From Mobula hypostoma (taxonomy: Eukaryota), in NCBI RefSeq assembly GCF_963921235.1, contig NC_086108.1, positions 39,372,001-39,436,000 of the forward strand: 64,000 nt of DNA, given 5' to 3'. A program made the position numbers and the translations under genes. Shown piece by piece: positions 1 to 5,549 of this stretch. Numbering within the stretch: position 1 is the first letter of the stretch; every line of letters starts with the position of its first letter. Under the pieces are notes generated by a model that saw only the letters and a program-made list of their open reading frames with translations, was not told the origin of the DNA and searched no databases.

Positions 1-201
1 TGGGAATAACAATGAAAGGGCCATTTCCAATAAATAAACAGGTCTAAGGAAGATATGATTCAGGTAAAGACAAAACAGAAAAGTTTGAATGTTTCTCCAA
101 ATGGAAAAATAAGACAATTACCTGGATGAAACACACCCATGCAAATTTACCATTCGCCAGGAAGGAATTATATATATCACTCCACAATGTGCACATAATC
201 A

Positions 202-3200
202 TTGGAGCTTATTGTTATACGACCAAGAGCTAGGATAAGAGGCTCTGAGTGTCCAGTGTGTTGGTGTGGGAGAGCATTTTCCAGCATTAAAGGTTTACAA
301 GTCCACCAAGCAAAGTTGAGGTGCTATTCCATCCCAGTGGATGAAGATGAGATTACGTCACCAAGCACAGATGATGTGGTCTTTTCAACCACTGATTCAC
401 AAGCCACAGCGATTCGCTCTGGAGAGAGTCATCATACTCCTGGTCAGACGAGAGATAACCCAGGTCAGGTTTCAGACCACAGCACCCAGGTAGATCCTTC
501 GCATGATGGCAGTGATGAGGAGGTAGAGAAGAAGAGGAAGGTCAAGTGGCCAGCAATGGCAGATGAGAAGGCTTGGCGTGTATTTGATGAGGATATCAGT
601 ATGATATTGGAGAACACTCTCAGGGGAACAACAAAGAGAAAGTTGGAAGTGATGGGCAATATGATTTACGATGTTGGAAAGTACAGGTTTGGTTTGCTTG
701 AATTGAAGAAAGCAAAGCCTACACAGCAACCAAGCAGGTGCCAGAAGGAGATTAGGAGGTTGAGGAGACAGCTTAGATCGTTGAGACAGAGGTGGAAGGT
801 AGCAAGTAAGAGTGACAAGCCAGGGCTTTCTGATCTCTGAGGGCATTTTGGAATAAAGTTAGCATCACTCCATCATGCAGAGTCACAACATAAAGAGAAA
901 GAAGAGAGAGAAGGCAAGAAAGTCGTTCTTTAAGAACCCTCATGAGTTCACAGAGAAACTGTTTGAACAAAGTAAGAGCGGGCAGATTAACATCTCTCAA
1001 CAAGAACTTGAGGATCACCTGGCAAGCACTTACTCTAACGAACAGCGGGAGGCTCCTTTGCTTGATATTTCAGGGCCTGTGAAGCCTACCAAGCCAGGAG
1101 TGAAGTTCAATCTGTCAGAACCCAAATTGGCAGAAGTCAAATGGTTTCATCAGAAAGGTAAGGTCAGGCTCAGTGCCAGGACTTAATGGAGTGCCGTATA
1201 AGGTGTTCAAGAAGTGTGAACAGCTGAGGAAGTACTTGTGGAGATTGTTAGAGGTGGTGTGGAGACAAGGTGTTTTTCCTTTGTTGTGGAGTGAGACTGA
1301 AGGAGTATACATCCCGAAGGAAGAGAATTCTTCTACATTGAATCAGTTCCGACCAATTTCACTCCTGAATATAGAGGGGAGGATTATGTTTGACATTCTG
1401 GCAGAAAGAATATCTTCATTTGTGATAGAGAATGGATTAGTAAATACGTCTGTGCAGAAGGCAGGAATACCAGGCTTCCCAGGATGCGTTGAACATTCTA
1501 GTATGATATGGCATACTATCCAGGAGTCAAAAAGGTTGAGAAGAAATCTGGCTGTAGTTTGGCCTGATCTGGCAAATGCTTATGGTTCTGTTCCCCATGT
1601 CCTGATTGAGTTTGTGATGGAATTCCTGTGGATTCCTGCTAAGGTGAGGAACTTTGTTATGCAGTACTACAACGATTTCCAGATGAGGTTTTCCACTCAG
1701 CAGTTTACAACTAGGTGGCAGAGCTTGGATGTTGGAATCCCAATGGGATGTGTGATTTCACCCATCCTTTTTGTGTTAGCCATGGAGGTCATTGTGAGGG
1801 CTGCAGAATCAGTGGGACCAGGTGTCGCACTTGATGGCAGAGAGGAATTACCACCAATATGAGCGTTCATGGCTGATCTTACCCTTTTGGGTTGCAGCAC
1901 GGAGGCAGTGGAAAATGTACTATCTAGACTCAAGAAGCTAATGGATTGGGGAAGAATGAAGTTCAAGACCAAGAAGTCAAGGAGCCTTGTTCTTAGGAGA
2001 GGAAAGCTGGTTGACTTTCATTTCACCCTTTGTGGAGAGGAGATTCCATCCATTCAAGACCAACCAGTTAAGAGCCTCGGGCGATGGTACACAGAGGAGC
2101 TGAGAGACACCAAGAGGGTTCAAGAGACAGGAGAACAGATCAGCAGAGGTCTGATGTCTGTTGACAAGTGTGGCTTGCCTGGCAAGTTGAAGTTGTGGTG
2201 CTTGCAATATGGACTGATGCCACGGATAATGTGGCCACAAACTGTCTATGAAGTGGCAATGCCCCATGTTGAGGCAATGGAACGGAAGATCAACAAGTAT
2301 GTGAAGAAGTGGCTTGGAGTACCGAGCAGCCTCACCAATGTTACAATCCACAGTAGCCAGACAAAGCTTACCATCCCAGTGCAATCCCTTGTGGAAGAGG
2401 TCAAGGTAGCCAAGGTAAGATCATCCTTGATGCTTCGAGACTCAAAAGACCCTGTCATCAAGAACACCCAGCCGGATGTGCAGTCAGGCAGGAAGTGGTC
2501 AGCCCGTGTAGCAGTTGATGAGGCAGAGTCTAGATTGAAGCACAAGGAGACGATTGAGGTTATCCAGCTGGGCCGCCAGGGCCTTGGATGGACAAACCAC
2601 AAGTGGTGGTCATTTTCTGCAGGTAAGGAGCGCCGTGAGCTTGTAACACAAGAAATACGAGAGGTAGAAGAGGAGAAGAGGTTAGCTAAAACAGCTGGCC
2701 TGGCCAAACAAGGGGCTTGGACCTGGTGGGAAAGTGTTGAACAATGACATCTATCTTGGAACGTTCTGTGGCAGATGGAACCGCTCCGCATTTCTTTTCT
2801 ATGCAGAGCAACATACGATCTGCTCCCAACACCTGCCAACCTCAGCACCTGGCATGAAGATAAGACAGACAGGTGTGTTGCTTGTGGCGAGAAGGGAACA
2901 CTTCAGCGTATTTTGAGTGCATGCAGAGTCAATCCTTCCAGCGGCATGTACACTTGGAGACATAACAATGTTCTCAAAGTTGTAACAGAAGCGGTTGAGC
3001 ACAGAGTACTGCAGCACAACTTATCTCATGCCCCATGCTGCACAGAACATCGTATATCATATGTGAAAGAAGGCTCCAAGTCAAGGGTGTACAGCACAGG
3101 CTCACGATCAGGCATACTTTCCTCAGCCAATGATTGGTGTGTCAAGGCTGACCTGGATGGGAAAGGCAGTTTCCCAGAGCAAATAGCTTTCACCACATTG

Positions 3201-3533
3201 CGTCCAGATATAATCGTATGGTCTGACACCAGTAGAGAAGTGGTTATTGGTGAACTCACAGTCTCCTGGGAAGACATCATTGATGAAGCCCATAAGTGCA
3301 AGTTAACCAAGTATGCAGAATTAAGATCAGAGTGCAGAGACAGAGGGTGGAAGGTCTCATGCTATCCATTCGAAGTAGGCTGCCGTGGGTTTATTGCGTT
3401 CACTTTCCAGAAGTGGCTGCGTGACCTTGGCTTCACTAGAAGAGAGATCAAGTTAACCAGCAGGGCTGTAGCTGAGGTAGCAGGGAAAAGATCAGCATGG
3501 GTGTGGACCAAGTATGTCCAGAAGGGCAGATAG
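202..3533 (+). pseudogene. Disrupted ZnF-RT-RLE polyprotein of the HERO-like element
   Basis: Pieces 202-840, 875-1186, 1173-1862, 1869-2747, 2775-3533; stops at 838-840, 1860-1862, 2745-2747; frameshifts near 870 and 1150. Confidence 0.9.
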
Positions 3534-3655
3534 TCAGACAGTGTATACATATCTTGCAAACCCTTCAGTAGTTGCATAGACACCTGAAGAGTAGACTATC
3601 TGTTGGATGGAAGTGACCAACAACTCTGATAGAGGCAGATGCCAAGTTTTTAAGC

Positions 3656-3774
3656 TCACCAGTGAGAGGTAGTGCTTTAGCACAGCTGGCCCACAACCTT
3701 GAGAGAGTCTTGCTCATAAGCGGGCCGAAACTCCTGAAGACAGGTGGTAGATCAACTGATGATCCCACTGGTGA
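3656..3774 (+). ncRNA. Structured RNA in the retrotransposon 3' UTR; candidate pseudoknotted hammerhead-like ribozyme
   Basis: Closing helix 3656-3667/3763-3774 (11/12 pairs); hairpin 3668-3687; GGCCC/GGGCC; GAGU-C with GAA-ACUC; UUGCUC with GAUCAA-CUGAUGA. See findings. Confidence 0.55.
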
Positions 3775-5549
3775 TACCACAGGACAGTTAACATCTTAGT
3801 CCACATGTATTTTTTTAACTCTTGCATAATAAATCCTGTTTGCTTCACTTTGTTTACTCACGGTACCGAAATAGTTTTTTGCTGAAGAACTAGTCCAAGG
3901 AAAAAATATTTATCAATGCAATATGCAAAGAAAAAGCATTGAACTTTCCCCAATGTTGTGTGCCAGCTGACTAACTGAAAGTTACTGTATCTGCACATTC
4001 TCCGTGAGACCATAATGTGCATGAGAATTTTCTGACATCTGTATCTGTTCATCCTAATTCGGTTCTGTTAGTGTTTTACCATGTTTTTCTACTATATTTG
4101 CTGCCTGTTTCCATCTCTGTCTTTCTCCTTCTTTCTTGAAACTTCTTTGATCCTGCACTCTGTTAAATAGCTACCCATTCTTTTTCCCACTCATCTTACT
4201 GGCCAAAATGTTAGGACAAATCCTATTGGCTAATTACAACAAGCCTAACTTTATCAACTGAATTTTTATTTTAAACGCCAAAAATGAAAAAACAAATTTT
4301 ATAATGTAATTAAAAGGACATTTTTATATAGATTTGCATTTTGAGAAAATCTTCAGAAAATAAAATAAAACATCGTCTTAAACCAGTGTATTACATATAA
4401 AACAACTAAGTCTGACCATGAGCTTGACGGACATCACAGCTCGATGCCATCTTCACCCCACTGGTAAATTACCATTTGTTACCATATCACTGACATCATA
4501 GAAACTTCTGAAATGTAAGGTCACAAGTTTTATTCATTGATGATATTCATTTCCCCTATCCCTTACTGTATCAATTAGTCAAAAAAAATGTTCTCTATTG
4601 CAATGTACTTTGATTTTGCCATCTGAAAACAATCTGATTTATTTTCCTATATGCTTTGATATTTCATCAAAATGATGTTATAATTTGATACATAGAGGTA
4701 GTAGTTCTTTCACATTAGTATTAATTTTGTCACATTAATGTGTGATCAGATGCAGAGGCTGCTATTAAATTTTACTCAATTTCCAGATAAAACAGTTAAA
4801 CTTGTCATTAATTAATATAACAGGCTTTTCCTACAAGGGGCAGTGAGATCTAAAAGGAAACACAGTTAGAAGATGTACAGCTAACCTAGCTCTCAGAATC
4901 AATGCTTCCTTGCCAAGCATTTCCACTCTGCATCCAAAAGGGACTCCTTTGCACAGCCCCAGTTTCTCCAACTACATCACAACTGTTTTAATGATGCCAT
5001 ACTTTATGCCCATGCTTTCAGTATATGTTCCATTTTCCTCAGTCCAGGATTTTCCTCCACCAGAGTTTACTGGAGTCTCTGGTCTGTCTCTCTCCCAATT
5101 TGCAGCCTTCTACTTTCATTCCTTCCTCTTCCTTCCAGAACACTTACAGGGGATCTTTTTGTCTTCATCTTCGGCCTCATCAGCTTTCACAGTCATTCTC
5201 CTCAATCTTTGCCCCTTTAAGCATGATATCACCTGCAAGTGCTACTTTCCTTTACATCCCCTTCAGGATTCTGAAGGAACAGCGCACTCTGTGATATTAG
5301 TCTACATCACAATCACCAACACCACTCCTTTCCAATGGAAACACATGAAGTGCAAAGCCTGTTCTTTTACTTGACAGGAATTTAACATTTTTACAGGATT
5401 CGTTTTCTTCTTCTTGTAAAGTTTAATAGCGGTTGGCAGAACAACATAAGGTGCATTACCGCCACCTACTGAGTTGGAGTATGGAGCAGAGAGGCAGGAA
5501 GTATTCCCACTAAATTCATCCCCCCCAAAAGTCACATCATATCAAAATG

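Follow-up and report, generated by a model that had tools for sequence, protein, structure and literature searches.

The window analysed here is a stretch of 64,000 nucleotides (nt) from the genome of Mobula hypostoma (contig NC_086108.1), and near its beginning lies, on the + strand, a decayed retrotransposon of the class without long terminal repeats (non-LTR) whose 3' untranslated region (UTR) contains a compact structured RNA. The open reading frame (ORF) of this element spans positions 199-3533 according to the ORF list, is spread over three frames and interrupted by stops, encodes a reverse transcriptase and a conserved C-terminal domain, and ends with a stop codon at 3531-3533. Positions 1104-1862 match the Pfam family RVT_1 (E 6e-13), and the C-terminal domain (2748-3530) has 81 homologues at E <= 1e-5, the nearest named ones being uncharacterised proteins of Branchiostoma (59% identity), Lytechinus (57-58%) and also Dreissena. 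The carriers of the RNA are a clade of endonuclease-bearing non-LTR retrotransposons. An earlier inspection of the same letters, referred to below as the sequence-only reading, had proposed a pseudoknotted, caged hammerhead ribozyme in the 3' UTR of a HERO-like element. Both domain assignments agree with a non-LTR retrotransposon, for which the HERO clade is a candidate. Region 3656-3774 holds a single, decayed copy of a conserved RNA module, ~105-120 nt long, followed by the 3' tail of the element (3775-3822), which has the motif UGUAU at 3806-3810 and ends without poly(A) at ~3822, where similarity is lost in family alignments.

All hammerhead pieces, helices and the linker named in the sequence-only reading are present on the + strand at the coordinates it had claimed. 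The module opens with the 5' strand of helix P, the clamp (3656-3667), which pairs with 3763-3774 through 11 of 12 possible pairs here and through all 12 in L003, a natural copy of the same family. Hairpin H1 (3668-3687) exactly fills the gap from helix P to G10.1; it has one A.A mismatch and a plain tetraloop in the window and 8 base pairs (bp) in L003. Next comes the 5' strand of stem II (3688-3692, G10.1 being 3688), which forms five of five pairs with 3722-3726, beginning with a G-C pair, and then the 5' strand of helix E (3694-3699), which faces 3742-3747 and retains 4 bp in the window (3696-3699 with 3742-3745, ACCU with AGGU) and 6 bp in L003. The dinucleotide GA at 3701-3702, directly 5' of stem III, would be the non-bulged strand of a kink-turn. 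The 3' strand of stem III (3703-3708, U16.1 being 3708) is paired with 3730-3733 over 3705-3708 in the window and over its full length, 3703-3708, in L003. It leads into C17 at 3709, the last letter of a GUC triplet (3707-3709), and by analogy with hammerhead numbering the scissile bond is predicted between 3709 and 3710. The 3' strand of stem I (3710-3715) has five of six pairs with 3750-3755 in the window and six of six in L003, and a 6-nt linker (3716-3721) connects the distal ends of stems I and II.

The second half of the module supplies the partners. The 3' strand of stem II, with C11.1 at 3726, is followed by G12, A13 and A14 (3722-3729 in all, GAA at 3727-3729), the 5' strand of stem III begins with A15.1 at 3730 and extends to 3735, and the presumptive bulged strand of the kink-turn (3736-3740) consists of a 3-nt bulge, GAA in the window family, and a subsequent GA. 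The 3' strand of helix E (3742-3747) and the 5' strand of stem I, which runs directly into C3-A9 as CUGAUGA (3750-3755 and 3756-3762, together 3750-3762), precede the 3' strand of helix P (3763-3774), which begins immediately past A9. The complete strand order reads P5' - H1 - II5' - E5' - GA - III3' - U-H(17) - I3' - linker - II3' - GAAA - III5' - NNNGA - E3' - I5' - CUGANGA - P3'. This connectivity is no circular permutation of the classic hammerhead, so the proposal that the order falls outside types I-III was correct.

In the 3.5-Gb host genome, the 3' UTR has >1,719 candidate copies, the best 40 of which are 94-100% identical, and one truncated copy (L046) is bordered by a 16-nt target-site duplication. 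Compared with the majority letter in an alignment of 30 genomic copies, the window copy differs at eight positions within 3656-3774; the majority letter restores a predicted pair at six of them (3665, 3671, 3684, 3695, 3704 and 3713), and the remaining two (3700 and 3748) are unpaired positions in the model. Every helix is intact in L003 (L003:1625-1739; P 12, H1 8, II 5, E 6, III 6 and I 6 bp). The sequence-only reading had cautioned that the copy is decayed and its stems short: the decay is real, and the worry about stem length is met by intact family members such as L003. Copies of one young family decay neutrally, and L003 shows what the active element contained, which is no proof of selection.

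Taken alone, the window copy could have arisen by chance once many windows are scanned. A scanner indifferent to topology was set to require CUGANGA and CGAAA, a stem I with at least 5/6 pairs, a stem III with four pairs or more and a stem II with a minimum of five Watson-Crick pairs, G-C first, all within a span of 150 nt. With both strands scanned, it found a single site in the window, the module at 3656-3774, and on 997 simulated 64-kb windows it returned 103 sites, corresponding to 0.10 per window and to a chance expectation of 0.10 per 128 kb. This rate is the one argument for the view that short complementary words in a structured UTR came together by chance, an explanation to be judged against the distant relatives of the element.

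These relatives were collected by scanning metagenome contigs with an alignment of the C-terminal domain of 16 homologues. A relative was encoded in 282 of 377 candidate stretches, and 80 loci were kept, with 35-45% identity to the domain in the window (termed endonuclease domain); the sequence past each ORF stop was taken as UTR, giving 68 UTRs of at least 150 nt and 27.4 kb in total. CUGANGA occurs in 59 of the 68 and the full motif, under the strict settings of the scanner, in 33, of which 32 have it in the order of the window (II5', UH, GAAA, CUGANGA), and the same scan found no match in the reverse complements of the 68 UTRs or in 30.6 kb of upstream coding sequence. Spacings are narrow in 29 clean examples, with mostly 20-21 nt from II5' to the site, 12-18 nt from the site to GAAA and mostly 26-29 nt from GAAA to CUGANGA. 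A covariance model (R1), seeded on six relatives and restricted to the nested helices P, H1, E and III, was run on 82 sources and gave 48 matches at E <= 1, none of which lies outside the sense strand; the window (3658-3772) scored 51.2 bits (E 8e-11) and L003 66.7 bits. R1 misses lineages without the kink-turn, e.g. L067, L071, L081 and L107, which are found by a parse anchored on the core. By one or the other method, the module is present in 60 of the 80 loci, and in nine of the remaining 20 the ORF runs off the contig without a stop or is followed by <120 nt. The recurrence of the motif in 33 of 68 distant UTRs, its absence from reverse complements and coding controls and the covariation described below leave next to no weight for a chance assembly. 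Because the same core and paired changes recur in distant relatives, the hammerhead-like RNA is real; the observation is thereby confirmed, and its structural interpretation is strongly supported by the comparative evidence. All parts of the caged architecture envisaged in the sequence-only reading, namely stems I-III, the clamp, the hairpin, the extension helix and the kink-turn-like loop, recur with covariation.

Conservation of the core was assessed in 44 non-redundant examples from the anchored parse, which uses CUGANGA and GAAA as anchors, requires U16.1 and leaves position 17 free. The only informative position of CUGANGA is consequently N7, the rest being anchor, and it is U in 28 relatives, C in 8, A in 5 and G in 3. 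No relative has G at position 17, though the parse allowed it, and all 44 carry C, A or U there; the cleavage triplet is GUU in 17 relatives, GUC in 16, GUA in 9 and AUA and UUC in one each. Of the 44, 42 retain G10.1 and 41 retain C11.1, CGAAA is intact in 41, and the 15.2-16.2 pair is C-G in 42.

Pairing was quantified in the R1 alignment, to which stems I and II were added as pseudoknots; pairing values of the four modelled helices thus lean toward the model, and the alignment was not fitted to stems I and II. Standard pairs occupy 92.7% of 1,765 cells, compared with 58.7% after shuffling, a value that 0 of 500 shuffles reach, and the covariation score is 0.742 vs 0.185 in the shuffles. When the 3' partners are slid by 1-3 columns, pairing drops to 35-43%. 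Six helices covary. Stem I is 91.9% paired, with two-sided changes at 6/6 pairs, and stem II 89.0% with two-sided changes at 4/5 pairs, a figure depressed by a one-column shift in two rows of the R1 seed. For stem III the values are 97.2% and 4/6, for helix P 95% and 10/10, and for H1 95.3% and 8/8. Covariation across homologues and invariance of the core had been named beforehand as the means of checking the motif, and on both counts the relatives side with it. An additional MAFFT alignment of 29 modules misaligned several lineages, and no count rests on it.

The arrangement has to be compared with hammerheads that are permuted in other than circular ways. Eckert, Friedrich, Weinberg & Weinberg (2023; PMC10085705) described such non-circular permutations, types SGC, CSG and GCS, in terms of three blocks, C (I5'-CUGAnGA-II5'), G (II3'-GAAA-III5') and S (III3'-site-I3'), which are assumed never to be interrupted, while a fourth helix ties stems I and II together. 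Types SGC and CSG were validated by cleavage assays and compensatory mutants and were cut in vitro at the predicted site (PMC10085705). The remark in the sequence-only reading that no report of the motif was known overlooks this work; the exact connectivity nonetheless falls outside the six block orders set out there. In 32 of the 33 strict matches, II5' lies 5' of block S, and the uninterrupted S, G, C order of type SGC does not occur in them. In their terms, the connectivity amounts to a type SGC that has been opened by circular permutation within the core.

The break lies between A9 and G10.1, the two positions that block C would join. In 29 of the 44 relatives, the 3' strand of helix P begins 0 nt past A9 with at least 7 bp, and in 25 of these 29, H1 is flush from its first to its last nucleotide; H1 therefore exactly fills the space between P5' and G10.1. 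A direct join of A9 to G10.1 (0-2 nt) is absent, as A9 runs into helix P and G10.1 comes after H1. The combination of P, H1, stem II and the core stack would have the strand pattern of a perfect four-way junction. We considered whether a type SGC hammerhead had been misread, with stem II formed by the nucleotides directly past CUGANGA and block C intact. A contiguous block C is weakly possible in only four of the 44 relatives, in which 4-5 pairs, G-U counted, can form between a strand starting 0-2 nt past A9 and the strand before GAAA, but the other 40 cannot form them. Moreover, the upstream II5' covaries with II3', and the nucleotides past A9 covary with the far-upstream P5', which makes such a misreading extremely unlikely.

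Helix E likewise pairs best with its own partner. At least 6 bp can form in 35 of 44 relatives, compared with 15% of non-self pairings, and the mean length is 6.5 bp with the own partner vs 4.1 bp with partners from other sequences. In most examples, 0-2 nt separate it from the distal end of stem II, and stem I ends 0-3 nt away on its distal side; the linker from I3' to II3' measures 0-8 nt in 29 relatives. In kink-turns of the Kt-7 type, one strand consists of the C-stem, a 3-nt bulge and GA, and on the other strand GA directly precedes the C-stem. Among the 44 aligned relatives, GA stands directly before III3' in 36 and NNNGA directly after III5' in 37, and 33 have both halves of what we take to be a kink-turn signature of this type with stem III as C-stem. 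A kink between stem III and helix E is accordingly predicted for most lineages; the signature is apparently absent in others such as L071, L081 and L107.

Two further observations concern the clamp and its hairpin. The loop of H1 contains a 6-nt palindrome in 31 of the 44 aligned relatives, UGAUCA in 18, UGGCCA in 8, GACGUC in 3, and UGUACA and GGAUCC in one each, a count that leans to the subclade of the R1 seed, which had UGAUCA loops; the carriers include L068-L070, L072, L073, L075, L077, L079, L083, L088, L090, L098, L109, L120, L121 and L124. The variation of the loop letters with retained self-complementarity suggests dimerisation of the RNA through loop-loop (kissing) contacts. In a set of lineages (L072, L079, L090, L103, L112, L114, L120-L122, L128 and L129), stem II starts only 5-18 nt past the stop codon, so that the 5' strand of P and part of H1 sit in the last codons of the ORF. 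There, a terminating ribosome would melt the clamp.

We consider a working ribozyme the most likely reading, at a probability of roughly 60%, because the exact catalytic consensus has been kept over such divergence; types SGC and CSG, with the same cyclic block order, provide a precedent for cleavage in vitro. In the mechanism that we propose, P and H1, ending at A9 and G10.1, would form a four-way junction with stem II and the core and thereby re-create block C, and helix E, bent back on stem III by the kink-turn, would tie stems I and II together at their distal ends, giving the 'cage'. With P closed, the core would self-cleave after position 17, between 3709 and 3710. Four helices (P, II, E and III), which amount to 29 bp in L003, would keep the products joined, so that release of the tail would not be automatic and the cut could perhaps be readily reversed. 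Our leading guess for the role is a gated switch on the coding RNA, positioned upstream of the short 3' tail that would prime reverse transcription.

Several findings weigh against cleavage. The sequence-only reading had noted that the element evidently retains sequence downstream of the cut, and indeed all genomic copies keep ~113 nt beyond the predicted site. The truncation test covered the 15 copies in which a base other than C precedes the exact 25-mer that follows the site; each of them is a point mutant, with no copy beginning at the site, and a search of the host genome with the tail gave mainly ordinary 5'-truncated copies, three of which start 8-12 nt from the site and none at the site. 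Cleaved RNA is therefore not a common template. Contigs of two other organisms (runs X19 and X2) carry a variant with uncompensated changes at both ends of stem II, in one of them also at G12; these are presumably dead copies. A second repeat family has nothing in common with the module but its last ~92 nt (window 3731-3822, the start being approximate) and lacks the rest of the core, and since this family uses the tail without the core, the hammerhead is probably not what the reverse transcriptase needs. The anchored parse itself demands three pairs per stem, so that pairs 1-3 are paired by construction, and the nested minimum-energy fold of the window copy computed with RNAfold places CUGAUGA inside a local hairpin. 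As for published systems, insertions between CUGAnGA and its stems do not exceed 1-2 nt in known hammerheads (PMC10085705), and the split found here may therefore cost activity; mutants of the hammerhead in a Penelope-like element had no effect on insertion in vitro (PMC11167929).

In a rival reading, the RNA adopts the hammerhead fold without cleaving in the cell and serves as a rigid scaffold, either binding an own or host protein (e.g. a kink-turn binder) or mediating RNA dimerisation, with the core kept for folding. Such a role would agree with the retention of sequence past the cut in all genomic copies and the lack of any start at the site among the 15 tested, with the kink-turn signature in 33 of 44 relatives, with the palindromic H1 loops in 31 of 44, which suggest a dimer interface, and with a split block C unlike that of all hammerheads known to cleave (PMC10085705); furthermore, the R2 protein recognises a small RNA fold in its 3' UTR (PMC12222951). 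However, the pattern of conservation is that of a working hammerhead, with N7 free, no G at position 17 and G12, G8, G5, C3, G10.1-C11.1 and C15.2-G16.2 kept, and the use of the tail by another family without the cage argues against the cage as a priming signal. We therefore regard a scaffold that does not cleave in the cell as a serious but less likely alternative to the working ribozyme.

The local hairpin around CUGAUGA raises the further question whether an ordinary nested fold, consisting of helix P and local hairpins, is the functional structure and the hammerhead words are kept for other reasons. The nested fold of the window copy, in which helix P is kept, has -43.8 kcal/mol (z = -2.6), and for L003 RNAfold gives -51.4 nested vs -44.7 for P+H1+E+III alone. 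RNAfold cannot score pseudoknots, however, and the addition of stem II (~-9) and stem I (~-4) makes the cage comparable. Only a few families have the local hairpin, while covariation of stems I and II extends to all lineages, and a purely nested functional fold is thus very unlikely.

The search for copies brought up additional features of the tail and of its surroundings. The repeat family that shares the tail joins directly past a (TC)n run and occurs also at L156:708-800; 89 exact 32-mer tail sites have a preceding base other than A, and many of them stand in same-strand pairs ~4.1 kb apart. In contigs of other organisms, the tail part reaches up to ~60x the depth of the upstream UTR. This jump in depth, together with loose ends at L003:1698, had at first been read as the sign of a partner resembling a short interspersed nuclear element, a reading that the tail-sharing repeat family has replaced. 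Near the 3' end of the element, ~25-45 nt past helix P, a short hairpin followed by UGUAU was seen in many lineages (by eye, uncounted) and may be a priming or recognition signal. The X19/X2 variant (L003:1651-1694, equivalent to window 3684-3727), altered at both ends of the 3' strand of stem II, would break the hammerhead but permit a shifted 6-bp helix between 3685-3690 and 3720-3725. Four sites within ~5 kb of one host contig (L149-L152 on C36) carry UTR copies 1.2-2.2 kb apart on one strand, all sharing a C-to-U change at position 17, which looks like local tandem amplification of a dead copy. Upstream of the truncated copy L046, another repeat (L046:1360-1420) has a hammerhead-like string of CUGAUGA, a short GC hairpin and AAAA, which resembles the decayed minimal hammerheads of Penelope-like elements.

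A more far-reaching proposal combines these elements: the module would be a seventh natural hammerhead connectivity and an ancient, obligatory and clade-wide part of animal non-LTR retrotransposons, acting as a gated and reversible cleave-and-religate switch that decides on retention of the tail, with helix P, a bound protein or loop-loop dimerisation as the gate. We advance it tentatively and at somewhat less than even odds. If true, the hammerhead core can bear an interruption of a conserved strand, provided that a helical junction takes over from the backbone there, in a connectivity that the published scheme of six permutations excludes by assumption (PMC10085705), and the search space for ribozymes is wider than descriptors based on blocks can cover. 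Within the literature searched, it would be the first link of non-circularly permuted hammerheads to autonomous animal retrotransposons; relative to the 2023 work, the split core strand, the kink-turn cage and the autonomous-retrotransposon setting are unusual. It also poses the puzzle why a mobile element would conserve a ribozyme that would cut off the tail needed for reverse transcription. With a length of only ~115 nt, the module lends itself to direct kinetics, probing and structure determination.

Comparison with catalogued RNAs gave no direct counterpart. No Rfam family reached its gathering score, whether the whole window was searched or 20 of the relatives, and the sole match at E up to 10 over 3534-3830 was to an unrelated small nucleolar RNA model (E 9.9), so that the Rfam search suggested in the sequence-only reading matched nothing relevant. 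A literature search, with most subscription journals outside it, found no hammerhead in HERO-like or R2-like 3' UTRs, no split block C and no kink-turn at stem III. With the classic types I, II and III in Rfam, the module shares CUGANGA, GAAA, UH, G10.1-C11.1, A15.1-U16.1 and three flanking helices, whereas its strand connectivity is no circular permutation of theirs. A discontinuous hammerhead in mammalian CLEC2 3' UTRs, whose parts are joined by long-range pairing, was reportedly described by Martick et al. in 2008; that ribozyme is reported to differ from the present module in having the classic topology with a very long loop, strands that are not reordered and an intact block C. The strands around stem III match the sequence pattern of the Kt-7 kink-turn, and the window family has the bulge GAA followed by GA.

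Among mobile elements, the minimal hammerheads of Penelope-like elements are said, by Lunse et al. in 2017, to be of type I, to have no stable stem III and to act as dimers. Such minimal hammerheads are carried by Penelope-like retrotransposons (PMC4209133), and the likeness consists in a hammerhead core at a non-coding retrotransposon end, but the hosts use a GIY-YIG endonuclease and belong to another element class. R2 elements are site-specific non-LTR elements of a related class and have a compact, partly pseudoknotted 3' UTR element (PMC12222951). In zebra finch R2, priming needs no more of the UTR than its final 67 nt, which may be compared with the ~92-nt tail common to another family here, but no hammerhead core is reported there (PMC12222951).

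The closest parallels remain types SGC, CSG and GCS (PMC10085705). In the text of that paper and one supplementary file, the word 'retrotransposon' occurs in reference titles only; the examples described there come from metatranscriptomes and are associated with hairpin ribozymes, and their cleavage has been shown, whereas the present module belongs to retrotransposon 3' UTRs and is known from its sequence. Both have the same core, the three stems, the C>S>G cyclic order, stems that cross as pseudoknots, a short linker between stems I and II and a fourth helix, which is helix E in our case. The difference lies in how these parts are strung together: in the retrotransposon module, block C is split between A9 and G10.1, II5' and E5' are located 5' of block S, P and H1 bridge the gap, and helix E would be continuous with stem III via the kink-turn.

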